From NCBI GenBank assembly GCA_018669975.1, contig JABHSK010000005.1, positions 57,123 through 121,122 on the forward strand: a DNA stretch of 64,000 nt, in the 5' to 3' direction. Below, piece by piece: positions 11,771 to 51,827 of this stretch. The notes under the pieces were generated by a model, which worked only from the letters and a program-made list of their open reading frames with translations, did no database searches and had not been told where the DNA came from. A program made the position numbers and the translations under genes. Each line of letters starts with the position of its first letter. Position 1 is the first letter of the stretch. Origin of the DNA: Candidatus Parcubacteria bacterium. GTDB lineage: Bacteria > Patescibacteriota > Patescibacteriia > UBA1558 > GWA2-36-10.

Positions 11771-11833
11771 TTAAGATAATCAGAGGGAGCCAGTTTGTCG
11801 AATTGGCGTTTGTACCTCACAAATAATATAAAT

Positions 11834-12262
11834 ATGGCTAAACAATTAAAGCAATTAGTAAAATTGCAAATCCAGGCTGGTAAAGCCACACCGGCTCCTC
11901 CAGTAGGTACTGCTTTAGGGCCACACGGTCTAAACATTCAGGAGTTTTGTACCAAATTTAATGACGCTACCAAGGACAGAATGGGTGAAGTTGTGCCTGT
12001 AGATTTAAGTATCTATGAGGACAGAACTTTTGATTTTGTACTTAAGACTGCGCCAGCATCTGATATGATCAAGAAAAAAATCAATCTCAAGAAAGGTTCA
12101 GGCAGACCTTTGCAGGAAAAAGTAGGCAAATTAACTCAAGCTCAGTTGACTGAGATTGCAGAAGCTAAAATGCCAGACTTGAATGCTAATGATATTGAAG
12201 CAGCTAAAAAGATTATCGCTGGTACTGCTAAGCAAATGGGTGTGCAAATTGAAGAAAATTAA
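11834..12262 (+). CDS. rplK: 50S ribosomal protein L11
   Basis: [39 protein letters not shown]; start chosen at the conserved MAK (ORF track begins 39 nt upstream). Confidence 0.9.
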
Positions 12263-12322
12263 TTTTTATTGAGGGAGCTCGGACTGTCATTTGAGCGTTT
12301 GCACCTCACAAATAATATAAAT

Positions 12323-13009
12323 ATGGCTAAAACAAGCAAAAGATTAAAAGAGGCACAAGCTAAAATTGATAATGAGAAAAAATATACTGCTGATGAAGGA
12401 ATTAAATTAGTTAAGGAAACTTCTCAGGTCAAATTTGACGCCTCAGTAGAAGTTCATGTCCGATTAGGCATTGATCCCAAGAAGGGTGATCAAATCGTTA
12501 GAAACTCAGTTATTTTACCTCACGGCACCGGTAAAACTATTAAGGTAGCAGCCTTTGTGCCAGAAGATAGAGCTAAAGAAGCTAAGGATGCTGGAGCAGA
12601 TGTAGTTGGCTCTGAAGAATTAATTGAATCAATCAAGAAGACTGGCAAAACTGATTTTGATATAGCAGTTACCATTCCTGAAATGATGAAGAATCTGGCT
12701 GTTATTGCTAAGATTTTAGGTCAAAAAGGTTTAATGCCAAATCCTAAAACTGGTACTATTGGTCCTGACCTGACCAAAATGATTGAAGAGCTTAAGAAAG
12801 GTAAGGTGTCCTATAAGAATGATGCTACTGCTAATCTACATATAACTATTGGTAAAGTATCATTTGAAGATAAGCAATTGATTGAAAATTTAGAAAAGTT
12901 TACAGATTCTCTGAAGAAATCAAAACCACAATCTTTAAAGGGAACATTTATTAAATCTCTTTATTTGACATCTTCTATGGGACCTAGTATTAAAATAGTT
13001 GTTAACTAA
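12323..13009 (+). CDS. rplA: 50S ribosomal protein L1
   Basis: MAKTSKRLKEAQAKIDNEKKYT...VRLGIDPKKGDQIVR; start chosen at the conserved MAK. Confidence 0.9.
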   Translation: MAKTSKRLKEAQAKIDNEKKYTADEGIKLVKETSQVKFDASVEVHVRLGIDPKKGDQIVRNSVILPHGTGKTIKVAAFVPEDRAKEAKDAGADVVGSEELIESIKKTGKTDFDIAVTIPEMMKNLAVIAKILGQKGLMPNPKTGTIGPDLTKMIEELKKGKVSYKNDATANLHITIGKVSFEDKQLIENLEKFTDSLKKSKPQSLKGTFIKSLYLTSSMGPSIKIVVN

Positions 13010-13023
13010 AATATTCACATTAA

Positions 13024-13055
13024 ACACGCCGCCCGAATGGGCGGCGTGTTTTTTA
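13024..13055 (+). terminator. intrinsic terminator ending the L11-L1 operon
   Basis: acacgccgccc-gaat-gggcggcgtgt hairpin (11 bp GC-rich) plus TTTTTT. Confidence 0.8.
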
Positions 13056-13369
13056 ATAAAGAGATTTTCTTGACAAGTTTTTTTATTGTGTATACACTGA
13101 AAGTACATAATAAAAATTATGTTAAACATTAGCTTAAAAAACAACAAGTCAAAGAGCTGTAGCTGTAGTTCATTCCGCAGCGGATTTGTTGTTGTTAGCT
13201 AATTACATATTTTTTATTATTTCATAGCCTTTTTGTGGGCAAATAATTGAATATAAATAATTTTATAGTAATCAGCTATCAACTTTACGTAGATAGCTTT
13301 TTTTGTATTCAAATTATTGTTCTTTTCACTTAGGGCGGAGTTGTTCATCTTTCTCAGGAGGCGTACAAA

Positions 13370-13693
13370 ATGTACAGAGACCGTCACAAATGTCGTGGGC
13401 CCATCAGCCACGTACTTCAGGATGCCTGGAAGCAGCGCATGCAGAGTAATCCCAGTAATGACGAATTGGTTGAAATTATCAAGCAAATCGTTGTTTGGCG
13501 GGAAGAGGCTGCTGCTGAGCTTCTCAAACGTGAGTTGAGTCTTACTATTCCTCAGTTGCGGGCAGTTGTCCAAAATGTTCCGGAATGGCAGGGTAAAGCT
13601 AGTCGTTTACTTGACCGTCTGATCGGTTGGGAGGGAGACAGGCAGTTACTGGAAGATCAAGAGGATAAGCCTAAGAAGCAGGCGATTGGCTAA
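13370..13693 (+). CDS. hypothetical protein (GC-rich cassette gene)
   Basis: AGGAGG SD 9 nt upstream of the ATG; local GC clearly above background; no recognisable family. Confidence 0.45.
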   Translation: MYRDRHKCRGPISHVLQDAWKQRMQSNPSNDELVEIIKQIVVWREEAAAELLKRELSLTIPQLRAVVQNVPEWQGKASRLLDRLIGWEGDRQLLEDQEDKPKKQAIG

Positions 13694-13705
13694 GGAGGTG
13701 ATATC

Positions 13706-13906
13706 ATGGCCAAAAAAATGCCTGATCAGAACAAGGGCTTTGATCGCGATGATCTTGTAGATAGTGCTACTGGTGATGAGTTAACGAATACTCAGAGAGG
13801 ATCTGGGGAGCATGAAGCCATCTATGGTCAAGAAGATGTCAGTAATTCTGATGTTTCCTGGACAGGTAATGATGATGATAGTGTTTCGCCATTTTTCGAT
13901 GGGTAA
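13706..13906 (+). CDS. hypothetical small highly acidic protein (net charge about -11 over 66 aa)
   Basis: AAGGAGGTG SD; 12 Asp plus 4 Glu versus 5 basic residues. Confidence 0.45.
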   Translation: MAKKMPDQNKGFDRDDLVDSATGDELTNTQRGSGEHEAIYGQEDVSNSDVSWTGNDDDSVSPFFDG

Positions 13907-14011
13907 CAGTCATGGGCGGTTTGATTTTCAAATCGCCCAGTATTAGAAATAAAGCATTGATATATATTTTAACGTGTGTTAAATTGATTTTAACAATTAA
14001 TCAACAATAGT

Positions 14012-15508
14012 ATGGATTTATTAATAAAAACTAAATCAGAAGACATAATGGAGGCCGAGGTATTATTTGTGCCTGTTTTAGAAGACGAACAAGCAATAAA
14101 GAATACAATTAAAAGCTTGCAATATGATGATCAAGCATGGGTATTGGATAAAATGTCCAAAGAAAAGTTTACAGGTAAAAAAGATCAGATATTAATTATG
14201 CCCGACGATGAGCAGGTGGTGATTTTTATTGGCACCGGACAAGCTGCTAAATTGTCTGTAGAAGATTGGCGTCAGATAGCTGGACAGGTGGTTGCATATT
14301 TAAAAAGATACTCAGCTCAGAGTATAGCTATGGTAGCCTCTCATTGGCTTAAAGGTAATCAAAATGTTAGAGCTTTGACTCAGGCTATGGCAGAAGGTAT
14401 TCTATTGGCTGGTTATGATTTTGATAAATATAAAAAAGAGGATTCTAGTAAAATTAAACTAAACCTTGAAAAAGTTTTTGTCTTAGCTAAAGCCAACCAA
14501 AGAGTAAAATTAAAACAGGGTTGGCAGGTAGGTCTATGGTTAGCAGAGGGCACTATTAAAGCCAGGGACTTAGTTAATGAGCCAGCTAGTGTGATGACTC
14601 CTACTTATTTAGCTAGACAAGCTGAACAAATAGCCAAAGTTAATAAAAGTATATCAGCAAAGATTTTGGAAAAAGCCCAGGTTAAAAAAATGGGCATGAA
14701 TGCTTTTTTAGCAGTTGATCAAGGTTCTAGTCAGGTGCCAAAGTTTATTCATTTGATATACAAGCCTACTGGCCGCACTAAAGACAAAATAGCCATTGTT
14801 GGTAAAGGAGTAACTTTTGATAGCGGTGGATTAAATATAAAGACCGGAGATTCCATGGAGCAGATGAAGATAGATATGGGAGGCGCAGCCACAGTGGTGG
14901 GATTATTTTCTGTGCTAGCTCAATTAAAGCCAAAGGTGGAGGTTCATGGAGTTATTGCTGCCTGTGAGAATATGCCTTCTGGAGCTGCTATTAAGCCAGG
15001 AGATATTGTTAAGAATATGCAGGGCAAGAGCATAGAAATAGGCAACACTGATGCTGAAGGTCGAGTGACCATGGCTGATTCATTGGCCTACGCTCAAAAG
15101 CAAGGTATCAGCAAGGTGGTGGATTTAGCTACTTTAACTGGTGCTGTGATGGCAGCTTTGGGTACGGATTATGCCGGTTTATTTGCTAATGATGAAAAGC
15201 TGGCTAAAGGTCTATTGAAGGCTGGGGATGTTTCTGGTGAAAATCTTTGGTTATTACCACTACCGTTGGAATATAAGAAACTTAATCAAAGTAAAGTAGC
15301 GGATATTAAAAACATACCTAGTACTAGGTATGGAGGAGCTATTACAGCAGCTTTATTTTTGCAGGAATTTATTGAAGAGGATGTAAAGTGGGCTCATCTA
15401 GATATAGCTGCACCAGTTTATGCTGAAAAACCAATGAATAGTTATACACCTGTAGGAGGAGTTGGTTTTGGAGTGCGTACACTATTTGAGTGGCTTAATA
15501 TTTTATAG
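14012..15508 (+). CDS. pepA: leucyl aminopeptidase (M17 family)
   Basis: NTDAEGR signature (GNTDAEGRVTMAD), GKGVTFDSGG, MKIDMGGAA. Confidence 0.85.
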   Translation: MDLLIKTKSEDIMEAEVLFVPVLEDEQAIKNTIKSLQYDDQAWVLDKMSKEKFTGKKDQILIMPDDEQVVIFIGTGQAAKLSVEDWRQIAGQVVAYLKRYSAQSIAMVASHWLKGNQNVRALTQAMAEGILLAGYDFDKYKKEDSSKIKLNLEKVFVLAKANQRVKLKQGWQVGLWLAEGTIKARDLVNEPASVMTPTYLARQAEQIAKVNKSISAKILEKAQVKKMGMNAFLAVDQGSSQVPKFIHLIYKPTGRTKDKIAIVGKGVTFDSGGLNIKTGDSMEQMKIDMGGAATVVGLFSVLAQLKPKVEVHGVIAACENMPSGAAIKPGDIVKNMQGKSIEIGNTDAEGRVTMADSLAYAQKQGISKVVDLATLTGAVMAALGTDYAGLFANDEKLAKGLLKAGDVSGENLWLLPLPLEYKKLNQSKVADIKNIPSTRYGGAITAALFLQEFIEEDVKWAHLDIAAPVYAEKPMNSYTPVGGVGFGVRTLFEWLNIL

Positions 15509-21272: not shown

Positions 21273-21430
21273 CCTTTTGGGCCTCTTAAAAAGATGTTCA
21301 ATAATACACAAGTTTAGTTATTGACTTTTGCTCTAAAATTTGTCATTATAATAGTAAGAATAATCGCCTTCGGGCATTATTCTTTGTACTGATATAATTA
21401 TTAAAAAACTATAGAAAGGGAGGTGATAGC

Positions 21431-21679
21431 GTGTTGGAGGTTAAAAGAAAGGATACAGAGTCTTTTGAAAGTTTGATTCGTAGGTTTACTAAGAAAACTA
21501 TCCAAAGCGGTAAAATTTTACAAGCCAAAAAAATTAGATTTTTTAACAAGAACAAAAGCAAAAGAGAATTGAAAGATAGTGCTTTGCGAAAACAAAAAAT
21601 CGGCGACCGTTTTGAATATATGAAAAAAATCGGCAAACTTGACGAAAGTAAGTTTAAACGTGGTAAAAAAAGAAGATAG
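21431..21679 (+). CDS. rpsU: 30S ribosomal protein S21 (GTG start)
   Basis: MLEVKRKDTESFESLIRRFTKK...RGKKRR; GGGAGGTG SD upstream of the GTG. Confidence 0.8.
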   Translation: MLEVKRKDTESFESLIRRFTKKTIQSGKILQAKKIRFFNKNKSKRELKDSALRKQKIGDRFEYMKKIGKLDESKFKRGKKRR

Positions 21680-22230: not shown

Positions 22231-23895
22231 ATGCGAATTAATAAAAAAATAACTGTTGTGTTTATTTTATTCTTAGCAGTTATTTTTTTGTTGCCAGACG
22301 TAGCGGCTGCACAGAGTGATATCTACGGTGTTAATCAATTGACTAATGCTAATTTAGGTACCAGAAGTCTCCAGGAGATGGTTGTGTCAGTAGTAAATAT
22401 AGTTCTAGGCTTCCTAGGTATATTAGCCACCTTAGTAATTCTCTATGGTGGTTTTATTTGGATGACCTCTGGCGGCAATTCAGATAAAATTGATAAAGCT
22501 AAACGGACTATTATTAACGGCGTGATTGGCTTGGCAATTATCTTATCATCTTTTGCTATTGCTAGATTCGTTCTCAAAGAGGGTTATGAGGGTATATTCG
22601 GCGGCGGCAGTGGAGGTGGTTCTGGCTATGTTGGTGGTGTTGGTTTGGGAGCTAGTGTTTTAGAGAGTCATTATCCGGCTCGTGGTGCTGTAGATATAGC
22701 AAGAAATACCAATATTTTTGTGACTTTCAAAGAGCCCATGAATGATTCTTTCATTACTAATGTAGGTTGTAATTATGTAGATGTGCCAGCTGGCTACACC
22801 TATTGCGTTGATGATAGCCTCTTTGAATATATAAAAATTTTTATCGATGAGATAAATCCAGTACTAATAGATGGTGATAGGATTATGGTTAAATATAATC
22901 CAGCTAACCCAAGGACATTTGAGTTTAATCCATATGGTACAGATGCTAATAATCATCTAGGGAATCCTAATGGTCACGTGCTTTATAAAGTGGTTTTAGA
23001 TAGCCTAGAAACACAGTCTGGAAACCCAGCCTTTAGTTTTGGATTTTATGATTGGAATTTTACAGTTAGCAATGAATTAGATTTGGTTCCACCAGAGGTG
23101 GTTTCAGTCATACCCGATGGTTCAAATAATCCTTATCCTAGGAATAGTGCAGTACAGATAAATTTTTCTGAGGCAGTCAATCCTATTTATGCTACTGGTG
23201 AACATCCAGGCTTAGGACCGCCATTTGTCAATATTACTATGTCTACCACCACCATTATAAATGGTGAATACACTATTGCTAATCAGTATCGGACAGTAGA
23301 ATTTATAACAGATGAACTTTGTGGGCAGAATTCATGTGGTGGCGATGTTTATTGTTTGCCAGGTAATAATACTATTAATGGCCAGGTAACGGACGTTATT
23401 CAAGATATGGCTGGTAATCAATTAGACGGAGCCTTTGGTAATGGTAATGGTATCGGTGGTGAGGGAGTTGGCGATTATGCTATTTGGAATTTTGACACTA
23501 ATAATACTATTGATTTGACGCCACCTAGGATTACTTATATGGATTCAGACAATTCCAATGCAGGTGGCATGTCATTGTCAGCGCCGATTGAAGTCGGATT
23601 TGATAAGACTTTATTGTTTAACTCAGTTAATGGTAATAGTTTAGGTTTATATAAAAATATATTTGGGGATATCAATTTCTGGTTTACAGCCACAACCACA
23701 AACTTGGTTAATGATACTATTTTGATAAACCATGATTTCTTTGAACCTTTAACCAGTTATGCAGTTACTTCAACCTCAGGTATAAAAGATGGTCTACAGA
23801 ATTGTTGGTATCCATGTAATTGTACTGACAATTTAGGTTCTTGTGATTGTGATACAGGTGGAGCTTGCGCAGGTAATTCTTGCCAAACAAACTAA
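22231..23895 (+). CDS. surface protein: signal peptide + two-helix (TrbC/VirB2-like topology) membrane module + Gly-rich linker + beta-rich extracellular domain; paralog of the N-terminus of the giant protein
   Basis: N-terminal about 115 aa aligns closely with the N-terminus of ORF 23921 (AQSDI.GVN..T...LGTR......V.S..NIVLG.LGI.A...I.YGGF.WMTS.GN.D......K..I...VIGL.IILS..AI.RFVL). Confidence 0.6.
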   Translation: MRINKKITVVFILFLAVIFLLPDVAAAQSDIYGVNQLTNANLGTRSLQEMVVSVVNIVLGFLGILATLVILYGGFIWMTSGGNSDKIDKAKRTIINGVIGLAIILSSFAIARFVLKEGYEGIFGGGSGGGSGYVGGVGLGASVLESHYPARGAVDIARNTNIFVTFKEPMNDSFITNVGCNYVDVPAGYTYCVDDSLFEYIKIFIDEINPVLIDGDRIMVKYNPANPRTFEFNPYGTDANNHLGNPNGHVLYKVVLDSLETQSGNPAFSFGFYDWNFTVSNELDLVPPEVVSVIPDGSNNPYPRNSAVQINFSEAVNPIYATGEHPGLGPPFVNITMSTTTIINGEYTIANQYRTVEFITDELCGQNSCGGDVYCLPGNNTINGQVTDVIQDMAGNQLDGAFGNGNGIGGEGVGDYAIWNFDTNNTIDLTPPRITYMDSDNSNAGGMSLSAPIEVGFDKTLLFNSVNGNSLGLYKNIFGDINFWFTATTTNLVNDTILINHDFFEPLTSYAVTSTSGIKDGLQNCWYPCNCTDNLGSCDCDTGGACAGNSCQTN

Positions 23896-23920: not shown

Positions 23921-26900
23921 ATGAAAAAAGTTTTATCCATACCAATAGTTACTTTGATACTTGGCTATTTGCAAGTAAATAAAGTTTTGGCTCAGTCGGA
24001 CATTTTAGGTGTCAACGGTATGACCGATACAGTTTTGGGTACGAGAGGGATAGAGGATACAGTGGCCTCAATTATAAATATTGTTCTCGGTCTATTGGGA
24101 ATCATTGCTGTAGTTTTGATAATCTATGGCGGGTTTTTATGGATGACTTCTAAAGGAAATACCGATCAAGTTCAACGCGCTAAAATGGTTATTATTAGTG
24201 CGGTTATTGGTTTGGTGATAATCTTGTCTGCCTATGCTATCACTAGGTTTGTTCTTGGTGCTCTGGAGAATGCTGTAGGTCCTGGTGGAGGAACTCCACA
24301 ACAACAAAACCAAAATCCAGGAGGTGCCCTTTGTCCGCCGCCGTTAAATCCAGGTGCAGTAGAGGTTTGCGATCCATTTCCTTCTGCAGCTACTGTGGGT
24401 AGTGCTTTTACAGTGGGTGCTTGGAATATTGGTCCTTGGGATACCTTAGCTACAAGCTTTGTACAATTTAATGACTTGGCAGGTAATACAGCTGTAGCAG
24501 AAATAGCTAGTTGTGGTGCCAATGGATATTATTGGAATTTACTCTATACAGATATTAACACTGGAGATGATTATTATGAGATTAGAGCTCTAGTGCCAGC
24601 TCTACCAGTATCTTTACCAAATTATGATGTTGAGGTACATAATATTAATTTGGCAAATCCTTTTTACACGCCAGCAATGCAATTTGCTATATTAAGTGGG
24701 TCACCTGCACCAAGTATTTTCTGTATTCAACCTTCACATGCTGCGACTAGTACAGCAGTGTCTATCATTGGTCGTGGTCTAGGAGTAGGTGGGCAGGCTT
24801 TGGATGAGATATTTGTAAATGCTTACCCTGGCGGTGTGCACCAACCACAATTTCCAGTTCCCGGCCCGGTTCCTGGTCCAACTATTACAAATTGGGCGGA
24901 TGATCAAATTGATTTTATAATACCAGACCAACAGATCAGTGGTAATGTTACAGTTCAAGTAGATGATGGTGCGGGTAACTCAGATACCAGTAACCCAGTT
25001 TACTTTATAGTTGATTGCACCAATGATGGTGAGTGTGCTTCTGGTTGTTGTCCTGGTTCACCGGGACCAGGTGTTTATGCCTGTTCTGAGGAAGTGGTTT
25101 GTACGGGTATTAGCTCAGCACCACACATTACGGCTATTAATCCAGATAATGGTACTGATGGAAATATAGTTACAGTATTTGGTTATAATTTTTGTGATGA
25201 CGTTGCCTGTGCTCCAGGTACAGTTTGGTTTACAGATGGCGCAAATAACCCTGTGGCCGGTATCTTACCAAGTACTCTCAATGCGCAGTGTGGAGATTTT
25301 TGGACAGACACGGCTATTATAATTGGTGTACCACCAACAGTTGATACTGGACAAGTGACCATGGAAACTGCTGCTGCAGTAGCCAGTGATAACGCTATTA
25401 CTTTTACTGAAAATAACATAGAATATCCTGGTATTTGTGCACTACAAGATGGTGCAGGTAATCCTATTACTACTGGATTTTTTGATGATGGCATACCAGT
25501 ACATGTGCACGGCATTAGATTTAATAATAACGATAGAATTACTTTTGGCGGATTTTTAGGCTATAATCCTTCCTATCTAGGTTTACCAACAGAAGTGCAG
25601 GCTGATGTGCCAAATTCAGTAGGTATAGCTGATGTAGTAGTGACATCTTCCACTGAAGCAACAATTGTAAGTAATCCTTTTCCATTTTCTGCTTTAGCTG
25701 TAACAGGTGGCTTGCCTACCATTTCAGAAATATCACCAACTAGTACTCGTATAGGAAAATATACTACTATCATGGGTGCTAATTTTGGTACCACACCTGG
25801 TGATGTTGAATTTTGGCAATTAGGAGTACATATAGATGATGGGGAGTTTACTTTCCCAGCGCAGTGTGGCAGCCATTATTGGCAGCATGACAGTATAGTA
25901 GTTAAGCCACCAACAGATTTGATACTTAATGGTGGTAACTACGGAGATTTTGATGTGGTAGTTAGAAGAAGTGGCGACAACGCTACTAGCTTACCGCATC
26001 CTGTAGAAATATTAGCAGGACCTCCTGGGCCAGGCATTTGCTTGATGCAACCAGACAATGGTCCAGCTGGTAAGACTATTAATTTTTATGGTGATAATTT
26101 TAATACCGCAGCTGGTGCTGTAGTATTTCATAATAATGAATTTGCTGATTTAACAAATGCAATTTGGGGTAATCAGCAAGTATTGACTGTGCCTGTACCC
26201 AACAATGCAGCCACTGGTCCAGTATTTATCAGAGACTCAGCGGGCATGGATAGTAATGATTTGATGTTTAGTGTTGGTGCCTGTAGTTCTGATACGCAGT
26301 GTCAAAATAATTTGCAGGGTAATATATGTTGTCCAGATACCAATGGAAATTTTTGTGATAATTATTTAGGCTGTAGCTCAATCAATGAATGTACTTATGG
26401 TTGGCGATTTACCACTGAATCATTATTGCAAGTAGTGGGCTGGGGTCCTGTTTGTGATGATTCATGTATCAACGGTACTGTCTGGGTAGATTTTAATACA
26501 GAAATAGTCGCTGCAGATCTTGATTTTAATAATTTTAGTATTTTAGAATGTACTGACTCAACTTGTCAGAATACTAACCCAGGTAATTTTGTAACTGCGG
26601 CTAGTACATTTACTCAGCCAGCACCAGCAGCTGCAGGTGATCCTTGGGTGGTAAGTTTTACACACAACGCTTTTAATCCAAATACCTACTATCTAGTAGA
26701 GGTAAATCCAAATATTCAAAATACAGACGGTGCCATTTTAGGTAATCCGCATTCCTGGAGTTTTGCCACTGGTGCTAATAACTGTGACGTTGATCATATA
26801 AATGTAGCACCGGCTAGTAGGCCTGCTTATATAGGTGATGTTATACCATTTGGTGCACAAGCTTATTCTCCTCCAAGTAGCTGTTATCCGGCTGGTCAGC

Positions 26901-29900
26901 CAATTGCTTGTGACGCAGCTATCAGCTGTAGTTGGAGTGCTTGGACCAACGATGGCGCCTATACTACTCAGATTCCAACAGGAATACCGGAATCAATGGA
27001 TATATCAGCAGATGCTGTTACACTAGTTGGTGGTACCCAGATAGGAGCTGAGGCAGTACAAGGTGCTAATACATTTAATGACTTTGGTGTTTTGGATATT
27101 ACTGTTGGTCCAAATAGTTTATTGGGGCTTAATCGACAGGCATATGGTCCAACCTGTAGTGATTCATGTTTAAATGGTGACGTTTGGATAGAGTTTGATA
27201 GCGAAGTGACCGTCAATGAAGACGCTGCACACTTTAGTATTTTAGAATGTACAGATTCAACTTGTCAGAATACAGTGGGTCCTAATCAAACTAATAGTAC
27301 AACTCAGCCAGTACCAGCAGCCGTAGGTGATCCTTGGCGCGTAGAATTAAATCATAATAATTTTTCACCAAATACTTATTATCTAGTGACCATAGATGGC
27401 AATATTGCCAATAATATTGGTCCTCTTGTAGGTGGTACCTTTACTTGGAGTTTTGGAGCAGGTGATGCTGCCTGTGATGTGGGCAATCTACTGGTGTCTC
27501 CAGCTATTGCTAATGTTAATATTGGGGATACTGTTCATTATTCTGCTCAACCTTATTCTGCGCCAGGTATTTGTTATCCAAGTGGTCAAGCAATTTCTTG
27601 TGACGCAGCCATTGGCTGTAGTTGGAACGCTTGGACAAATGATGGTGCATATACTACTCAGATTCCAATTGCAGTAGACAATATAGATATTTTAGCTAAT
27701 AATCCAACGCCAGCTGTAGGAACTCCAGTAGGTGTAGGAGTGACTCAAGGTGCTACTACTTTCTCTGGTGTAGGTACTTTGAATATAGGTACCGGAGGAG
27801 CGTCAGTGTTCTCCTCCACTGGACATGGTCCAACTTGTAGTGATTCCTGTATTAATGGTTTGGTGCATGCTGACTTTAACGAAGAGCCAGACTTCCTTCC
27901 TTCCACAAGAATTTATCAGTGTGACGATGCTACCTGTACAGCTACTTCTGGACCAAGTTTATTAGTTGGAACAAATACATATCAACTAATGGTTGGTGGT
28001 GACTGGCGAGTTCGACTTTTTCATACTCCTTTTACACCAGGTGTATCTTATCAAGCTTATGTAGATGGTGGCACTTATCATACCTATGCATCAGGTGATG
28101 CTTATCTAGGCAATGCTTTGATGTGGAGTTTTGGCACAGGCGTAAACAGCTGTGATGTTGATCGTGCAGACATTTATCCTCCAGGTCCAGATCCAATTTT
28201 AAGCACTGTAAATTTAGGAGATAATATTAGTTATTCTGTGGAGACCTATTCCGTGCCAGGTATTTGTTATCCAGGTGGTCAACCAATCGTCTGTGATGCA
28301 TCTATTGGTTGTATCTTATTTTGGAATGCAAACAGTCAACCGGGTGGTTTAGTGAATATAACCACTGCGCAAGATACTGATTCAGTTACTTACAATGCAA
28401 CTACCGTCGGTAATAATGATACGGTAAGGATGAGAGCCGTGCAGAATGCAACACAGTTTCTAGATGCCACTGATGTTGATGTTGTTACTGGCGTGCTTCC
28501 AGGTAGTCCAAATATAGTTGACCATGAGCCAGTAGCACTGCCAGTTTGTATTAATGCTGCGCCAACAGTTGTTTTTGATCAGTTGATGGATTCAGCTAGT
28601 ATTAATAGTAATGTTAAAGTATATAGAACTGGAACTCCGGGACCTAATTGTATTAGTCCTGGTAATCCTACTCTTTGTGAGGTTCCAGGTTCATTTACTC
28701 TTGTAGCAGATTCAGCCATACCAGAGACACGGGCCATATTCAATCCCGATACATATTTGGCTACTTCTACAAATCATTATTTATATGTAGGTCCAAACAC
28801 GCAGAGTTTAGATGGTCAGAGTCTTGGTTGGACTACTGACCTTGCGTTTTCTATGCTGGAAGTAACTGGTGATGGAGTTGTGGATGGACTTGCTTGGATG
28901 TTTCCTACTAATCAAACTGTTTGTCAACTTAGTCATGCGATAATCACGCCAACTTATGATTTCTTTCATTGTTCTTTAGATGATTGTGATGAAAATGATG
29001 TTGCACCGGGTGGTAATAATGAGCATAGATATACTGCTGTAGCCTATGGTGTGGATGGTTCACCGCTAAACGTTTCTAATTATTGGTGGACTAACAGTGA
29101 TCCTTCCATATTTACTATAGACTCTCAGACAACTCAACAGATTATGGGTTGGCCAGGATTTGATAATGGGCATGTTACTTTGTCTGTATCAGCCTGGGAC
29201 AATGACCCAGCTATTACAGGTACCGTTGGAGCAGCAGCAGGTATTGAAATTTTCCTTTGTGAAAATCCATGGCCTAGTGCAAACACCGTGCCTTGGGAGC
29301 CAGGCCCACCACCAAATCCTTATCATTATTCAACCCTATATTGTTTAGATGATGGTGATGGTGGATTCCTACCTTACTTAGATGCAGCTGTATCAGCTAC
29401 TAATCCAAATCCAAATGGTGTTTTAAATGCCGGTGAAAGAATATTTATTATCAACCCATCTAGTTCCATGGGAAGTTTGAATTTAGCTCAATATCAGTTT
29501 GGTAGTTTAGCTTATGGAAGAGAGTTGGATATTGATAATAATTTAAGTGAAAATAAATCGTGGTTTGAGAAAATTAGAACTGCTCTTTGGGGAGATGTTA
29601 AAAAAGCAGAGGGACAGGCCAATGCCTTACCAATGTGTGCGCCAGGTAACCCGACAAATCTACAGGTCAGTAGTGTAGATGACACTCAGGTTACCTTGAC
29701 TTGGGGTAACGCTTCAAGTGGTGTTGGACCCAATGGTGCAGTCACAAACTATAATATGTACCGTAGAGAAATTCCAAATGGTAATTATCCAGGCCCTTTA
29801 CAGGGCACTATAAATGTGCCAGGGCAGAGAATATTTACAGATAATACTGTAGTGACAGATACTATTTATGAATATACCGTGACTGCTGAGGCATCAGCTT

Positions 29901-32900
29901 GTCCTGCAGAAACTTTTCCTGTAGTCAGTACGACTGTTACAGCATCTATTTCACAGCCGCATGTAGATATCATAGGTCTTAGGGTGATGGGCAACGATGA
30001 GCACTTGTCTATTACTGATTGGTATAAACAACATGCACCAAATCCAGAAGTACTTGGTGAGATAAAAGAAATAGATGGCTATGAGGCCATGCAAGTTGGT
30101 AATACCACTTATATAGGTGCTTTGAACATGTCAGGACTTATTTATACAAATGTTTATATAATATCCCACAATATAGGTGCTAGTGGAGACACTCGTGATA
30201 TCTATAAGCAATTTATAGAAAACATGAAGTTCAACACTAACATGCCTAGATTGGAAAATGTCTGTAATGCAGATACATCAATTATTTGTTCTAGTGATTT
30301 TGATTGTCCGGTGGGAGATTATTGTACATCTAGAGATTTAAAAATAAAACGTGATTTACAACGCCTAGGTGACTTGATGAATGTTAAAAACATGGTAGAG
30401 GAATATGGTCAATCACATAAGGCTTGTAGTCATAATAGTGCTATTGCTTGTGTAGATGACTCACCTTGTATTTTAGGAGGAGGCACCTGTGTCTCATATT
30501 ATCCATTGCTTAATGCAGGAACCTTTGTGAATGGTATGAGTAATAGTAATTGGCCATCATGGAATACTACTTTACGTACTATTTTGGGAGAGGAATTACC
30601 AGAAGATCCAATTGGTTTATTTAACGGGTGTCCACCAGGTGCTGACCCTGACACATGTTGGGATGAATTAGTTTCACCACCAGAGTTTACTTGTCCAGCT
30701 GAATCATTGATATATTTTTATAATAATGATGTTAATGTTTCGCAAGGTATAGACTATTTCTTGGGAGCCAATTTTGAGTATGATTCTAGTCCAGCTTTAC
30801 ATTTTGATCCTTCGGGGTTTAATCCGTTGACTTTTGGTTGTGATTTATATAATGGACCAGCTAGTATAACTGGTATTTGGCCAGACCCGGCTTGTCCGGT
30901 ACCACAGGATGGTATGCCACATATTTATTCTAGTTTAGATAGCCTGTGTAGTGTGGCTAGTGTTTATTCTCCAGGTGCAGTCACTATCCCTTCTTGTGGA
31001 AATGGCACCTGGGAACCAGATGGTGTTGATGGTGTGCCAAATACACCTGACGATGAAATATGTGAACCTGGTATGCAGAGAAATTTGTGTATAGAAACAG
31101 TAGTTCCGCTAGGAACGGATTGGTGGGATGCAGGAAACCACATAGGTGGTTGTAATCCTGTCGGCACAGAAGATGCCGGTGGTAATCTAATTGAGTGTAC
31201 TTGGTATGAGCCAGATCCTGCTCTAACGGCAGTAGATTGTGGAGGCTATTGTGGTAATAATACTATAGATCCAGTTGAGTCCTGTGATGGTGCAGCTGGT
31301 TTTGATGGACTTTATACTTGCTACGATCCAGATACCATGACTACTAGTACCCCTGTTTGTAATATTAATGTTTGCCAAGCTTTTTGCCCAACCGGAAACT
31401 TAGCATCCCTCTGTGGAGATGGTGCTTGGGATGCTAGCTATGAACAATGTGATGCCAGTGCTGATCCAAGCGGATTGGTAGGCTGGGATTGTGGTGTGGT
31501 GGCTACTTCAACGGTAGCTTGTAATAATTGTGCTATAGAATGTACTATCGGCGGAACTTTATATAATGGTGTATGTGGTAATGATATTATTGAGTGGCCA
31601 GAAGAATGTGAGCCAGGAATACATATTCCTCCAACAGCAGCGACTTCATCGCCGACTTATCAATATTTATGTGATCCTACTTATTGTGTTTATGATGGTG
31701 GTTATTGCGCAGATGGCATTAATCCTGGACCGTATGATTCAGGCGGCAATACTAATGAAGTGGCCATATTGATAGATGGTAGTGCTTTCTACCAACCAGA
31801 AGAATGTGATGATTTAGAATGGGATATACCACAGAGGCATAATTCAGATCAAGATTATGAATATTTATGTAATTCTTGCGTAATTGAAGGTGGCTATTGT
31901 GGTGACGGCAATCGAGATTCTGCAGCTGGTATTTCTCCTAGTCCACCAGAAGAATGTGATGATGGTAATAATTCTGAGGCAGATGTCTGTACTAATGCCT
32001 GTGAGTGGGGCTGTGAAGATGTGGCAATTGGGCCTTTTCCAAGAGCGCCAATTTTGGCTGGCTACATTTCCTCAAAGAATACCGACGATGGTTTATTGTT
32101 TAACACTACTGATGCCACAGTAGAGCTACACGCTGGAGACTCGGCTACGCTACCTCTAGGTAGTTGTCGTATCAGTGGCGATGTAGTAGTTGATGTGACT
32201 GTGCATGGTAATGATTCATATGCAGGTATAGTATTTGTTGTGGACAGGTCAAGTAGTATGAGTGGTGATATAGCTGCTGCTAAAAATGCGATCGGTTCTG
32301 CTATTGTGACAATATTTGACCGTAATCCAACTGCTCAAATTGCTATCGTTGAGTACGGAGATGACGCTTGGACAAGAATTAATTTTACAGGTTTTGAGCA
32401 GGAGAATTTATTAATTGGTAGTTTTAGGAAAACTGGTGCTATAGGAGGAGCAGTTAACCAAATTAATGCCGATAGGCCTAGTACAGACCACTCTATTGGT
32501 TTAGATAGGGCTTATGGTTTATTTAATGCTACTAGCTTTGAGAATAACATAGTTATTTTTATGACAGATGGGAGTCCAACTGGTGGTGTAACTGGGAACT
32601 GTGTTAATGGTGCTAATGTTGGTGATGCCTACGGTCGGACCTTATGTATAGCTGAAAATGATCTTAAATTTTGTAACAATCCCGCAGTAGACACGTGCGT
32701 AGATATGTTTACAGTAGCCTTTACTTCTAATGTCGGTTTGCAAGGTTTTTTAAACGCCGTTTCTTCTTCAGATTGTGTTTATTCTAATTATGGAAGATCA
32801 ACTACAGGGGGTACTTGCGGTAGTAATGGTATTGAATGTCTAAATACTTTAAATCAACGGGAAGAATGTGATGGTGGTCCAGACTGTATATCATCTGCCT

Positions 32901-33265
32901 TGCCCAACGCTTGTCAATGGTCAGGAGATAGGGTTAATGACAATAGGGCGTATTCTGGTAGTAGTCAAGCGGAGTTGGCTCAGATGTATCAGGATATATC
33001 AGGATCCATCCCTATTAATAATGTTTTACTTGCCTTGGATAATTCGGGTGCTACTACCACATTAAATGATATTGGAGTTACTTTTGATAATTCTTACCGT
33101 ATTCATACCAATGGAATTGCAACTTGCAGTGACGGCTCCACTGTTGATAATGAGCTAAATATTAGTGCTAATTTTACAGGTAATATAAATGCTTATCTAG
33201 AATTGAGCAATCCAGTTTATGAATTCTGCCATTGGTATAACTGTCCCTGGTGTTTTAATAACTAA
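23921..33265 (+). CDS. giant (3114 aa) multidomain cell-surface protein: TrbC/VirB2-like N-terminal membrane module; IPT/TIG-like domains; 3 tandem repeats of about 230 aa; FN3; Cys-rich CGDG...ECDDGN repeats (Myxococcus-type, DUF4215-like); vWA domain with MIDAS DRSSS
   Basis: Single uninterrupted 9345-nt ORF; motifs PHITAINPDNGTDGNIVTVFGYNF (IPT), PTNLQVSSVDDTQVTLTW (FN3), CGDGNRDSAAG...EECDDGNNSEADVCTNAC, FVVDRSSSMSGDIAAAKNAIG (vWA). Confidence 0.75.
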   Translation: MKKVLSIPIVTLILGYLQVNKVLAQSDILGVNGMTDTVLGTRGIEDTVASIINIVLGLLGIIAVVLIIYGGFLWMTSKGNTDQVQRAKMVIISAVIGLVIILSAYAITRFVLGALENAVGPGGGTPQQQNQNPGGALCPPPLNPGAVEVCDPFPSAATVGSAFTVGAWNIGPWDTLATSFVQFNDLAGNTAVAEIASCGANGYYWNLLYTDINTGDDYYEIRALVPALPVSLPNYDVEVHNINLANPFYTPAMQFAILSGSPAPSIFCIQPSHAATSTAVSIIGRGLGVGGQALDEIFVNAYPGGVHQPQFPVPGPVPGPTITNWADDQIDFIIPDQQISGNVTVQVDDGAGNSDTSNPVYFIVDCTNDGECASGCCPGSPGPGVYACSEEVVCTGISSAPHITAINPDNGTDGNIVTVFGYNFCDDVACAPGTVWFTDGANNPVAGILPSTLNAQCGDFWTDTAIIIGVPPTVDTGQVTMETAAAVASDNAITFTENNIEYPGICALQDGAGNPITTGFFDDGIPVHVHGIRFNNNDRITFGGFLGYNPSYLGLPTEVQADVPNSVGIADVVVTSSTEATIVSNPFPFSALAVTGGLPTISEISPTSTRIGKYTTIMGANFGTTPGDVEFWQLGVHIDDGEFTFPAQCGSHYWQHDSIVVKPPTDLILNGGNYGDFDVVVRRSGDNATSLPHPVEILAGPPGPGICLMQPDNGPAGKTINFYGDNFNTAAGAVVFHNNEFADLTNAIWGNQQVLTVPVPNNAATGPVFIRDSAGMDSNDLMFSVGACSSDTQCQNNLQGNICCPDTNGNFCDNYLGCSSINECTYGWRFTTESLLQVVGWGPVCDDSCINGTVWVDFNTEIVAADLDFNNFSILECTDSTCQNTNPGNFVTAASTFTQPAPAAAGDPWVVSFTHNAFNPNTYYLVEVNPNIQNTDGAILGNPHSWSFATGANNCDVDHINVAPASRPAYIGDVIPFGAQAYSPPSSCYPAGQPIACDAAISCSWSAWTNDGAYTTQIPTGIPESMDISADAVTLVGGTQIGAEAVQGANTFNDFGVLDITVGPNSLLGLNRQAYGPTCSDSCLNGDVWIEFDSEVTVNEDAAHFSILECTDSTCQNTVGPNQTNSTTQPVPAAVGDPWRVELNHNNFSPNTYYLVTIDGNIANNIGPLVGGTFTWSFGAGDAACDVGNLLVSPAIANVNIGDTVHYSAQPYSAPGICYPSGQAISCDAAIGCSWNAWTNDGAYTTQIPIAVDNIDILANNPTPAVGTPVGVGVTQGATTFSGVGTLNIGTGGASVFSSTGHGPTCSDSCINGLVHADFNEEPDFLPSTRIYQCDDATCTATSGPSLLVGTNTYQLMVGGDWRVRLFHTPFTPGVSYQAYVDGGTYHTYASGDAYLGNALMWSFGTGVNSCDVDRADIYPPGPDPILSTVNLGDNISYSVETYSVPGICYPGGQPIVCDASIGCILFWNANSQPGGLVNITTAQDTDSVTYNATTVGNNDTVRMRAVQNATQFLDATDVDVVTGVLPGSPNIVDHEPVALPVCINAAPTVVFDQLMDSASINSNVKVYRTGTPGPNCISPGNPTLCEVPGSFTLVADSAIPETRAIFNPDTYLATSTNHYLYVGPNTQSLDGQSLGWTTDLAFSMLEVTGDGVVDGLAWMFPTNQTVCQLSHAIITPTYDFFHCSLDDCDENDVAPGGNNEHRYTAVAYGVDGSPLNVSNYWWTNSDPSIFTIDSQTTQQIMGWPGFDNGHVTLSVSAWDNDPAITGTVGAAAGIEIFLCENPWPSANTVPWEPGPPPNPYHYSTLYCLDDGDGGFLPYLDAAVSATNPNPNGVLNAGERIFIINPSSSMGSLNLAQYQFGSLAYGRELDIDNNLSENKSWFEKIRTALWGDVKKAEGQANALPMCAPGNPTNLQVSSVDDTQVTLTWGNASSGVGPNGAVTNYNMYRREIPNGNYPGPLQGTINVPGQRIFTDNTVVTDTIYEYTVTAEASACPAETFPVVSTTVTASISQPHVDIIGLRVMGNDEHLSITDWYKQHAPNPEVLGEIKEIDGYEAMQVGNTTYIGALNMSGLIYTNVYIISHNIGASGDTRDIYKQFIENMKFNTNMPRLENVCNADTSIICSSDFDCPVGDYCTSRDLKIKRDLQRLGDLMNVKNMVEEYGQSHKACSHNSAIACVDDSPCILGGGTCVSYYPLLNAGTFVNGMSNSNWPSWNTTLRTILGEELPEDPIGLFNGCPPGADPDTCWDELVSPPEFTCPAESLIYFYNNDVNVSQGIDYFLGANFEYDSSPALHFDPSGFNPLTFGCDLYNGPASITGIWPDPACPVPQDGMPHIYSSLDSLCSVASVYSPGAVTIPSCGNGTWEPDGVDGVPNTPDDEICEPGMQRNLCIETVVPLGTDWWDAGNHIGGCNPVGTEDAGGNLIECTWYEPDPALTAVDCGGYCGNNTIDPVESCDGAAGFDGLYTCYDPDTMTTSTPVCNINVCQAFCPTGNLASLCGDGAWDASYEQCDASADPSGLVGWDCGVVATSTVACNNCAIECTIGGTLYNGVCGNDIIEWPEECEPGIHIPPTAATSSPTYQYLCDPTYCVYDGGYCADGINPGPYDSGGNTNEVAILIDGSAFYQPEECDDLEWDIPQRHNSDQDYEYLCNSCVIEGGYCGDGNRDSAAGISPSPPEECDDGNNSEADVCTNACEWGCEDVAIGPFPRAPILAGYISSKNTDDGLLFNTTDATVELHAGDSATLPLGSCRISGDVVVDVTVHGNDSYAGIVFVVDRSSSMSGDIAAAKNAIGSAIVTIFDRNPTAQIAIVEYGDDAWTRINFTGFEQENLLIGSFRKTGAIGGAVNQINADRPSTDHSIGLDRAYGLFNATSFENNIVIFMTDGSPTGGVTGNCVNGANVGDAYGRTLCIAENDLKFCNNPAVDTCVDMFTVAFTSNVGLQGFLNAVSSSDCVYSNYGRSTTGGTCGSNGIECLNTLNQREECDGGPDCISSALPNACQWSGDRVNDNRAYSGSSQAELAQMYQDISGSIPINNVLLALDNSGATTTLNDIGVTFDNSYRIHTNGIATCSDGSTVDNELNISANFTGNINAYLELSNPVYEFCHWYNCPWCFNN
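26440..28520 (+). repeat. three tandem in-frame repeats of about 690-700 bp (about 230 aa) inside the giant gene
   Basis: Recurring GPTCSDSC(I/L)NG..W.(D/E)F...ILECTDSTCQNT...GDPW...YYLV...CDV...YS.P..CYP.GQ.I.CDAAI.CSW.AWTNDGAYTTQIP, with stretches of near-identical DNA. Confidence 0.7.
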
Positions 33266-40133: not shown

Positions 40134-40622
40134 TTGAACATCACTCGTCGTAAAGTTGTTAAACGGGGGTTGGGTATTCTAGTGTTTGCTCCGTTTGTGA
40201 GCTTGAGTAGTCTTCTATCGGGATGCATGAATATCACTGATCCCGAGGTAGAGTTACCGAAGCAACCCGAACAGCCATTGGCTGACAAGTCCGAACCAGA
40301 GGATCTAGTGCAATCAGGTACTGTAGCTGATTTTTTACAGAGGCGGGTAATATCTATTGAGTATTACGAGCAGTCTGATTGGAATTGTGGCTCTGGTCTA
40401 TTATTGATGAAGCACCTGGTGACTTCTCGTGGAGACCATGGTCTAGATGGGTATGAATATTTTATCAACGGAGAGTGTGTCCAGGAGGCTATTAATTTAG
40501 TTGATTTCAATCCCAGTCAGAGATTGTCTATTAAACGAAATGGACAGCGTGTCTGGAGCTATAAGCCTAGGACCAGACCTAATGTTCATATGCATGAACA
40601 AGCTCTACCAGAACCAACTTGA
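40134..40622 (+). CDS. putative Tat-signal lipoprotein, GC-rich cassette gene (TTG start)
   Basis: RRKVVKRG twin-Arg-like n-region, hydrophobic core, lipobox LLSGC; AAGGAGG SD 7 nt upstream of the TTG; local GC about 50%. Confidence 0.5.
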   Translation: MNITRRKVVKRGLGILVFAPFVSLSSLLSGCMNITDPEVELPKQPEQPLADKSEPEDLVQSGTVADFLQRRVISIEYYEQSDWNCGSGLLLMKHLVTSRGDHGLDGYEYFINGECVQEAINLVDFNPSQRLSIKRNGQRVWSYKPRTRPNVHMHEQALPEPT

Positions 40623-51155: not shown

Positions 51156-51827
51156 TTGAGAGCAAATGGAAAGATACCGCTGATAGCTAATCATGATGGA
51201 TTTATTTTTGATCTAGATATGACCCTAGTGGAGACTCACTTTATCAACTGTATTTATGTATCTATCTTGGCTACTATTCGAGAATTGGGTGGAATTATAC
51301 CTGATGTTGATTTAGCTAGAAAATTTTGGTACGGTTCTGTTCATAGGGATCAATGCATATTCAGGCAATTTGGTTTGGATCCTAAGTTGTTCTGGGCTAC
51401 TTTCCGGAAGTATGATACGCCAGAATTTCGTTTGGCTCATACTACGGTAGTTCCTGGAGCTCGAGAGGCATTATTGCTTCTTAAAACCAAAAGGAAAAAA
51501 GTGGCTATCATTACTGCCTCAGTGGCTCATATGGCTGAACCAGAGATTGAAATGCTTGAGTTTGATTTCGATGCACACTTTTCGGTGTCAGAATCACCAG
51601 ACTTCGAGCCCAAGCCCGACCCGCAGAGCCTTGAGCTTATGATGCAAACCTTGTCAGTGCAACCTGATCGTACGGTATATACTGGCGATAGTCATGAAGA
51701 TAATCGCTTTGCCAACAATGCCGGGGTCAAATTTGTTTACTATGATCGTAATAGGGGTATTGCTATGCCACACGAGCCTGACGCTACCTTTAATGACTGG
51801 AAACAATATCCAACTTTAGAAGTATAA
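51156..51827 (+). CDS. HAD-superfamily hydrolase (TTG start), GC-rich cassette gene
   Basis: Motif I FIFDLDMTLV (DxDxT); AAGGAGG SD 7 nt upstream of the TTG; consensus-like promoter TTGCAA-16-TATAAT at about 51013-51041. Confidence 0.6.
   Translation: MRANGKIPLIANHDGFIFDLDMTLVETHFINCIYVSILATIRELGGIIPDVDLARKFWYGSVHRDQCIFRQFGLDPKLFWATFRKYDTPEFRLAHTTVVPGAREALLLLKTKRKKVAIITASVAHMAEPEIEMLEFDFDAHFSVSESPDFEPKPDPQSLELMMQTLSVQPDRTVYTGDSHEDNRFANNAGVKFVYYDRNRGIAMPHEPDATFNDWKQYPTLEV

Follow-up and report, generated by a model that had tools for sequence, protein, structure and literature searches.

A candidate leader-peptide transcription attenuator upstream of two lineage-restricted small genes in a Candidatus Parcubacteria genome

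The attenuators of amino-acid operons (trpL, hisL, leuL, thrL and pheL) combine a short leader open reading frame (ORF) with mutually exclusive RNA pairings (1:2, 2:3 and 3:4) and an intrinsic terminator just before the structural genes, and a ribosome at the stop codon of the leader covers segment 2. Stall-sensing leaders (ermC and ermB, and the attenuators of vmlR, lmo0919, hflXr and bmrCD) have no amino-acid codon runs; there an early stall remodels the RNA and induces genes that handle stalling. Here we describe a leader with all of the listed features of the amino-acid operon attenuators, located upstream of two small genes, A and B, in a 64,000-nt stretch of a Candidatus Parcubacteria genome (assembly GCA_018669975.1, contig JABHSK010000005.1, positions 57,123 to 121,122 of the forward strand). 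This whole stretch is called the window, and positions are counted from its first nucleotide. A search of a literature collection returned no paper that joined transcription attenuation or leader peptides with the candidate phyla radiation (CPR) or Patescibacteria. The kind of mechanism is itself known; the novelty would be its occurrence in a phylum for which, it seems, no leader-peptide attenuator has yet been reported.

The locus differed from the amino-acid operon attenuators in having no cognate codon run, in carrying two orphan small proteins as cargo instead of biosynthetic enzymes, in matching no Rfam model and in belonging to a CPR host. With the stall-sensing leaders it would share the logic of induction by an early stall, but the cargo of those leaders is recognizable (methyltransferase, ABC-F, HflX, transporter) and their inducer is known. 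From the features of the sequence we consider it likely that a leader-peptide transcription attenuator precedes A and B. We hold with moderate confidence the picture as a whole, in which the region 13070-13938 of a Komeilibacteria-like Parcubacteria genome is a self-contained, vertically inherited and lineage-restricted module, flanked upstream by the rplA terminator and downstream by the pepA promoter.

Leader peptide and alternative pairings upstream of gene A

A scan of the GTDB species representatives with the uL1 protein of the window gave 80 Parcubacteria loci, the closest of them labelled Candidatus Komeilibacteria or Parcubacteria. Twelve instances of the leader were compared. The sequence analysis established a leader short ORF (sORF) and three alternative pairings that are conserved between instances. 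The elements of the module in the window are listed below, with segment 1 placed from the inverted repeats and from the minimum free energy (MFE) folds of all instances.

13070-13098, + strand: module promoter of the sigma-70 type, TTGACA (13070-13075), 17-nt spacer, TACACT (13093-13098); 10 of 12 consensus positions matched
13119-13202, + strand: leader sORF of 27 codons plus TAA, MLNISLKNNKSKSCSCSSFRSGFVVVS; no Shine-Dalgarno (SD) motif, A/U-rich start context typical of the genome
13128-13150, + strand: segment 1, the 5' arm of a long hairpin, about codons 4-11 of the sORF
13183-13207, + strand: segment 2, which forms the 3' side of the long hairpin and contains the sORF stop codon (13200-13202); pairs with segment 1 or with segment 3 (putative antiterminator)
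13269-13284, + strand: segment 3, complementary to segment 2; made up of the 5' arm of the attenuator terminator and the 5 nt preceding it
13274-13304, + strand: candidate attenuator terminator (3:4), AGCTATCAAC / GTAGATAGCT followed by a T-run, hairpin at 13274-13298; invariant in close relatives
13356-13693, + strand: gene A, SD AGGAGG at 13356-13361, coding sequence 13370-13693, 107 aa
13692-13906, + strand: gene B, SD AAGGAGGTGAT at 13692-13702, coding sequence 13706-13906, 66 aa
13914-13938, + strand: GC-rich hairpin after gene B, without U-tract; 3' boundary of the module

The promoter block was invariant in close relatives, all diverged lineages kept TTGACA-17-TATAnn, and transcription would start at about 13105. 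Each of the 12 leaders contained a single ATG ORF of 20-35 codons, and in each this was the homologous sORF, with an invariant ATG and a length of 25-29 codons across six diverged lineages. In dinucleotide shuffles such an ORF ended in segment 2 at a rate of about 3% per lineage, so that the probability of a leader sORF arising by chance in all six lineages is about 1e-9. The leader was 91% identical among close relatives, above the identity of the genes themselves, while synonymous divergence (dS) of the flanking genes was 1.2-1.8. Its RNA folded beyond shuffled sequences (z -4.8). A preliminary description of this DNA, made from the window's letters and ORF list, had pointed to a consensus-like promoter and a long inverted repeat upstream of the two genes; the promoter was recovered as described, and the repeat is real too, although it is no bare palindrome and would form the body of the attenuator. 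As for other explanations of these elements, a 6S, signal recognition particle or Y-type RNA was rejected for the long hairpin, which has no Rfam support and is a conserved ORF, and a type I toxin was rejected for the sORF, whose hydrophobic stretch (7-9 residues) is too short.

The arms of the inverted repeat lie at 13137-13150/13183-13196 and are extended by 13128-13139/13192-13203 and 13107-13122/13205-13220. The resulting 1:2 duplex had an energy of -10 to -16.5 kcal/mol, and the long 1:2 hairpin was present in every MFE fold. A terminator hairpin followed by T5-7 stood 52-99 nt past the sORF stop in all 12 instances (-6.4 to -11.1 kcal/mol). The alternative 2:3 duplex comprised 14-16 bp and was put at -9 to -16 kcal/mol, or at -11.8 to -14.5 kcal/mol in the window and -9 to -18.6 kcal/mol in relatives. 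Its stability exceeded that of the terminator in all instances, its z against shuffled sequences was -1.7 to -6.6, and it included the sORF stop codon in 11 of 12. RNAalifold gave almost no consensus on a MAFFT alignment of all leaders, and because that alignment was poor the pairings were analysed instance by instance and on a short alignment. On the latter, a short alignment in which the register of four sequences was set by hand, 84% of cells paired in register against 19-55% when the rows were slid. Compensatory changes were found at several 2:3 positions, with five pairs changed on both sides.

We simulated a ribosome footprint moving along the sORF. Free RNA folded into the terminator in 10 of the 12 instances, a ribosome placed at roughly the first 8-14 codons allowed an alternative pairing that displaced the terminator, and a ribosome late in the sORF or at its stop restored it. 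The mechanism that we favour follows the same course. The near-consensus promoter would drive a leader of about 200 nt encoding a 27-codon peptide, and this leader would act as a classical ribosome-mediated transcription attenuator. Without a ribosome, segments 1 and 2 would pair, the 3:4 terminator would form and transcription would stop at 13299-13304. A ribosome that reaches the stop codon would mask segment 2, so that the 3:4 terminator forms and transcription ends at the same positions. A ribosome stalled in roughly the first 8-14 codons would mask segment 1 and leave segment 2 to the 2:3 antiterminator, with read-through into A and B as the predicted outcome.

The leader was searched for elsewhere and compared with known RNA families. 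A heuristic attenuator scan of 1.9 Mb (both strands, all loci and the window) recovered the element before gene A plus six scattered, unrelated matches, and within the 64-kb window the leader of gene A was the sole match. Searching 94 loci by nhmmer with the leader alignment gave the known instances alone, all upstream of gene A. Rfam gave no match at the gathering threshold in the window and eight relatives, including the Trp, His, Leu, Thr and Phe leaders (Trp/His/Leu/Thr/Phe_leader), L10_leader and T-box, and the sub-threshold matches were all driven by the rplA terminator. Two side observations belong here. One relative (L026) carried two tandem sORF-attenuator copies before gene A, at 900-1051 and 1069-1218, and a GTTCTTT(T)C block (13319-13327, + strand) between the attenuator and the gene A SD was kept in every diverged lineage.

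These searches also bear on a different reading of the leader, namely that promoter, sORF, hairpin and terminator form an independent small gene (a small RNA, a peptide with a hydrophobic tail or a dual-function RNA), that expression of A and B comes from constitutive leakage or a different start, and that the 2:3 pairing is incidental. The unit does have its own promoter and terminator and occurs in tandem copies in one genome, as in some small RNA families, and palindromic AGCT-containing motifs could yield an apparent cross-complementarity. However, the 2:3 pairing is in register over 14-16 bp, includes the stop codon in 11 of 12 instances and shows compensatory changes at several positions, and the element was never found apart from gene A. 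No second promoter-like site was present in 13305-13356, and the weak promoter-like match at 13192-13220 (9 of 12 positions) falls within the leader. The hydrophobic stretch of the peptide is moreover too short for a membrane helix. We regard an independent unit as improbable.

Several points weigh against the picture as a whole. The evidence is entirely computational. The terminator in the window is weak (-7.2 kcal/mol), and the crude MFE simulation gave antiterminated free RNA in 2 of 12 instances (L010 and L020). The 2:3 covariation is only moderate: 58 of 500 shuffles reached its score, the two segments vary rather little, and the pairing statistics include the four hand-registered rows. 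The 12 leader peptides contained no run of any single regulatory codon, which is the tandem-codon signature of classical attenuators. Early codons were enriched in Asn, Ser and Lys, and a weak hint comes from Asn, which each leader peptide has 1-3 times within codons 3-9. An arrest peptide of specific sequence is unsupported because the middle part of the peptide varies even among close relatives. Finally, any function proposed for A and B is guesswork based on their fold class and on how they would be regulated.

Coding status and predicted structure of A and B

Both A and B are genuine coding genes under purifying selection, judging from the pattern of substitutions. Counted by codon position against close relatives, the substitutions showed third-position bias (9/7/33 for A and 14/8/28 for B), and the ratio of nonsynonymous to synonymous divergence (dN/dS) was 0.07-0.12 for A and 0.14-0.21 for B, compared with 0.07-0.08 for rplA and pepA. 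The same bias and ratios led us to reject a structured RNA, in place of genes, as the explanation of the GC-rich stretch. The first 23 codons of A differed from those of one close relative (L001) by synonymous changes only, so that the start at 13370 is correct and the 84-aa database version (P0003) is too short. A read-through fusion across the stop codon of A into B was also rejected: A and B share a reading frame in the window, L001 and L010, but L030 has them in different frames. The preliminary description had listed these genes as two small GC-rich ORFs of 107 and 66 aa led by AGGAGG SDs, and this held: they are real genes of 42-49% GC with their own promoter.

The composition of the genes stood out, as that description had proposed to check, with A and B being outliers in GC content at third codon positions (GC3), SD strength and codon adaptation. 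The GC content was 0.49 for gene A and 0.42 for gene B, and 300-nt windows peaked at 0.46-0.49 against about 0.30-0.40 around them. GC3 of A was 0.49 against 0.24-0.31 for its neighbours, and in every lineage it exceeded the neighbours by 15-30 points, including genomes of 26-28% GC (0.26 against 0.11-0.14). This excess in every lineage argues against a recent foreign origin and looks like a maintained property. Codon adaptation of both genes was among the lowest in the window. For gene A, dS against L001 and L006 was 0.72-0.83, while that of rplA, rplK and pepA was 1.2-1.8, and the low value suggests selection on the mRNA itself (structure or codon choice). The GC-rich hairpin after B (12-15 bp) was kept in structure but not in sequence in all lineages (L001, L006, L010, L019, L022, L026, L030, L091 and L092). 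It was never followed by a U-run in any lineage, whereas the rplA terminators of the same genomes all have one; it is probably a stabiliser or a leaky terminator before pepA.

A single-sequence search of 5.8 billion proteins gave close homologues only, three for A and two for B, all on contigs with the same neighbours; the database record matching protein B exactly is named 'hypothetical protein HOB10_02760'. An exhaustive profile (hidden Markov model) search of 1.84 billion representatives with A gave three orthologue groups of 95-98 aa. It also gave about 20 longer unannotated metagenomic proteins (200-430 aa) that matched in 2-6 stretches, or in 11 for one low-complexity protein. The longer relatives are made up of the same repeat as A, a unit of about 28-36 residues that follows the pattern W..LL....PSN.DL..II.....REEA. 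A Pfam scan of ten of them returned no convincing family, eight looked-up clusters had no functional name, and the genomic context of P0013, a long repeat-protein relative of A, was uninformative. Searches with A and B in Pfam, NCBIfam, PHROGs, PADLOC and PDB sequences gave nothing meaningful; PADLOC returned two weak, chance-level matches to A and NCBIfam a single match to B far below threshold (secA2, E 0.21, 9.8 bits where the cut-off is 930).

Sequence analysis pointed to a fold class for A and to disorder for B. Protein A is probably a mini alpha-solenoid of about 2.5 helical hairpin repeats that are HEAT/PBS-lyase-like (or PPR-like), a resemblance at the level of fold class only. It has no Pfam HEAT, PPR or TPR match, Foldseek found nothing below E=1, and compared with HEAT-like/PBS-lyase and PPR solenoids (for example E. 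coli YibA, PDB 1oyz) A has only these 2.5 or so repeats. Protein B contains 16 D+E and 5 K+R, which confirms the net charge of about -11 over 66 aa noted at the outset, and has an isoelectric point of 4.05. AlphaFold, run on a 10-sequence alignment, gave B no secondary structure, with a mean predicted local distance difference test score (pLDDT) of 58.8 and a predicted template modelling score (pTM) of 0.12, and B is thus predicted to be acidic and disordered throughout. The B family consists of stand-alone proteins of 59-66 aa, found in the same Parcubacteria lineages alone, with the conserved motifs MP(D/E), R(E/D)D..DG, AIYGQ(D/E)D and C-terminal (S/T)P(F/W/I)F(D/L)G. It is plausible that B docks through such short motifs on A or on a third partner.

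The charge of B had first suggested a horizontally acquired anti-restriction or anti-defence cassette, with B as a DNA mimic like Ocr or ArdA in charge. The net charge, the GC content, codon usage and SD strength atypical for the genome, and the varying presence among relatives all fit such an origin. The likeness of B to T7 Ocr and ArdA, however, ends with its strongly negative net charge: its sequence is not similar, it lies in neither a phage nor a plasmid context, and no folded structure is predicted for it, while characterised DNA mimics display rigid arrays of carboxylates. No homologue of A or B was found in 50,697 phage records and 72,556 plasmids (tblastn), in IMG/VR contigs or in PHROGs, so the proposed check for phage and plasmid homologues came out empty, and PADLOC likewise held none. 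In relatives the chromosomal site and its flanks are constant, the GC3 excess is kept in every lineage and tracks host GC, and purifying selection on the genes is on a par with that on housekeeping genes. The anti-defence proposal therefore fails on both counts that had been set for it, the same chromosomal site in relatives and the lack of a predicted fold for B, and we give it very little credence.

We gave scarcely more credence to a toxin-antitoxin or addiction pair, with A as the stable effector and B as its labile acidic antidote. Such a pair would be in keeping with two small genes transcribed together, with the acidic and disordered nature of one product and with a patchy distribution that includes repeated loss, and a variant of the proposal draws on type III toxin-antitoxin loci, in which a structured RNA, a terminator and a protein gene follow each other, giving a superficial likeness. 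Yet Pfam, NCBIfam and PADLOC gave no toxin or antitoxin domain, A would be a scaffold of helical repeats whose fold does not look catalytic, and B lacks a DNA-binding domain. Nor does the leader consist of short repeats in tandem, and the locus is single-copy at a fixed site. A pair of this kind is very improbable.

Setting and inheritance of the module

The order of genes at the locus was gyrB, a membrane protein gene, secE, nusG, rplK, rplA, the cassette, pepA, pth and der, followed by a LytR-family gene on the opposite strand. The flanking features are as follows.

12323-13009, + strand: rplA (uL1), from the ORF list; last gene of secE-nusG-rplK-rplA, upstream of the module
13022-13056, + strand: intrinsic terminator of the rplKA operon, a fully complementary inverted repeat with a perfect 13-bp stem (13022-13034/13039-13051), a 4-nt GAAT loop and a T-run
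13957-13985, + strand: pepA promoter, TTGATA ... TGTTAAATT, downstream of the module; kept in relatives with and without the cassette
14012-15508, + strand: pepA, Pfam Peptidase_M17, E 1.8e-120

The rplA product of a relative, likewise 228 aa long, has Pfam Ribosomal_L1. The strong terminator that the preliminary description placed at about 13024 was borne out by the stem at 13022-13051 and its T-run; a simple terminator scanner missed it because the T-run lies partly within the stem. Relatives have an equivalent GC-rich hairpin with a U-tract after rplA. Also borne out was the absence of rplJ, rplL, rpoB and rpoC from the 64-kb window, where tblastn with E. coli L10 and L12 and motif scans for RpoB, RpoC and L12 found none of them. 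The way the L11-L1 operon ends is normal for the clade, however, and the idea of displaced rplJL-rpoBC genes finds no support: tblastn with the L10 and L12 proteins of E. coli and an L12 motif scan placed neither rplJ nor rplL within 6 kb of rplA in any of the 80 Parcubacteria loci. Among the 23 closest loci (L010-L032), rplK-rplA was usually followed by a variable gap, by pepA (21 of 23) and by pth (19 of 23). The order nusG-rplK-rplA-[gap]-pepA-pth is conserved in the clade, and the operon end is no anomaly.

These results bear on the proposal that A and B are extremely diverged uL10 and bL12 stalk proteins at the ancestral rplJ-rplL position, preceded by a regulated leader. The position directly after rplA, the order of a longer near-neutral protein followed by a small acidic one and the long structured leader would agree with it, and the hydrophobic C-terminal tip of B presumably recalls the tails of stalk proteins. 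But Pfam gave no match to Ribosomal_L10 or Ribosomal_L12 even at E<=1, Rfam none to L10_leader, and with 0 of 80 loci carrying rplJL beside rplA the position is not ancestral here. The cassette is moreover missing from many sister lineages, which is impossible for essential stalk proteins. We attach next to no probability to this proposal.

About ten of the closest relatives had no cassette; in these the rplA terminator was followed after 110-140 nt by pepA, with the conserved pepA promoter (TTGAYA ... TGTTAAATT) in between, so that terminator and promoter met in a clean junction of about 120 nt. Carriers had extra DNA exactly between the rplA terminator and the pepA promoter, at the same site and in the same order in all. 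Diverged A (38-51% identity) and B (34-48%) were found at this site in L010, L022, L026, L030, L091 and L092; L020 had A alone, beside an assembly gap, and L019 had a doubtful A-like ORF. A metagenome scan with a narrower A alignment gave four loci. On a neighbour-joining tree of nusG, rplK, rplA and pepA, the carriers were scattered among non-carriers. The simplest reading is an ancestral module with repeated loss, because the carriers do not differ in site, in gene order or in any of the signals.

Further genes were seen at the site in some relatives. An M20-type peptidase-like gene lay between gene B and pepA in L026. One or two small zinc-ribbon genes (CxxC...CxxC) on the - strand, divergent from the module, lay between the rplA terminator and the leader promoter in relatives (L001 1436-1627; L010 6744-6938 and 6935-7123; L091 about 1900-2180; also L027, L029 and L030), and the window had no such gene. 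They were SD-led and GC-rich (GC3 0.55 in L001), with only generic, sub-threshold zinc-finger matches.

The constant neighbour pepA raises the possibility that the attenuator senses amino-acid shortage and that transcription reads past the U-less hairpin into pepA, a leucyl aminopeptidase gene, with A and B as partners or regulators of PepA. The hairpin after B is unlikely to be an efficient terminator since it has no U-tract in any lineage, pepA is always the next gene, and the Asn codons at positions 3-9 recur in every leader peptide; CPR bacteria are also generally auxotrophic. Against this, pepA has its own conserved promoter whether or not the cassette is present, it occurs without the module in many relatives, another peptidase gene stands between B and pepA in L026, and the leader peptide has no run of codons for a single amino acid. 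We therefore consider a PepA-centred role possible but unlikely.

Other observations in the window concern its remaining genes. An identical 23-nt block, ACCTCACAAATAATATAAATATG, occurs at 11814-11836 and 12303-12325 (+ strand), ending at the start codons of rplK and rplA, where none is expected by chance. ACCTC, which resembles an anti-SD, lies within the block, and the two copies may serve as a common translational operator, for instance in feedback by uL1 or uL11. The protein encoded at 22231-23895 (+ strand) has a type IV secretion system TrbC/VirB2-type pilin domain and Big_5 domains, and the next ORF (23921-33265, + strand) encodes 3114 aa. No tRNA, rRNA or other known RNA gene was found anywhere in the 64 kb (ARAGORN including tRNA and tmRNA; Rfam).

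SD usage and the signal that the leader may sense

An SD-like motif preceded 4 of 41 long ORFs in the window, AGGAGG occurred at chance frequency overall, and typical starts were A/U-rich, like that of the leader sORF. Genes A and B would thus be translated from unusually strong SDs in a genome that hardly uses them. The other genes with strong SDs were the following.

21431-21679, + strand (21419-21679 together with its SD): probable rpsU (bS21), GTG start, extended SD GGGAGGTGAT; bS21 match just below the curated cut-offs
40134-40622, + strand: ORF with TTG start
51156-51827, + strand: HAD hydrolase gene with TTG start
59694-60836 and 61940-62731, - strand: two ORFs

Apart from rpsU, the genes with strong SDs (A, B and four others) were exactly those with the lowest codon adaptation in the window, and their GC3 was raised. 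The ribosomes of Bacteroidia are SD-blind because bS21, bS18 and bS6 sequester the anti-SD, and there the SD-led rpsU is better translated by ribosomes without bS21 (PMC7797042, PMC9976891). Within CPR, only 48% of Parcubacteria had a detected anti-SD motif, and bS21 is often missing from this group (PMC9297842). The locus shares with the Bacteroidia loop (PMC7797042, PMC9976891, PMC13000453) an SD-poor genome and an SD-led probable rpsU, both seen within the window. It differs in belonging to another phylum and in having several non-ribosomal genes that also carry strong SDs together with atypical codon usage, and the likeness is drawn from the genes of the window alone. By analogy with Bacteroidia, the SD dependence of A and B may add a second layer of control tied to bS21.

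On the reading that we favour, the attenuator before A and B, stalling would be the inducing signal, with amino-acid shortage or translation inhibition as candidates. The safest statement is that A and B would be turned on by slow elongation over the first dozen codons. Our best guess is that A, as a peptide-binding solenoid, and B, as an acidic tail protein with docking motifs, might act together in a translation-stress or starvation response; any specific role for the two proteins is doubtful. A bolder variant would be a two-tier sensor of the state of translation unique to this CPR clade, in which the attenuator reports stalling and the strong SDs limit translation of A and B to ribosomes with a free anti-SD, for example those without bS21. 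In that variant A, as a solenoid adaptor, and B, as an acidic tail protein whose C-terminal tip is conserved and aromatic, would be new proteins associated with the ribosome or with translation factors, and the GC3-rich codon usage would be part of the design. We think it quite unlikely.

Regulatory RNA mechanisms of CPR bacteria are almost unexplored because the organisms are uncultured. If our interpretation is true, a textbook 1:2/2:3/3:4 attenuator that has been kept together with its cargo throughout a family-level clade would point to coupled transcription-translation sensing in reduced CPR genomes. It would also give a handle on two orphan proteins, as A and B should appear upon ribosome stalling. 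The SD-poor genome with strong SDs on rpsU, A, B and a few other genes suggests that Parcubacteria may have an analogue of the 'SD-blind ribosome plus bS21 loop' of Bacteroidia.

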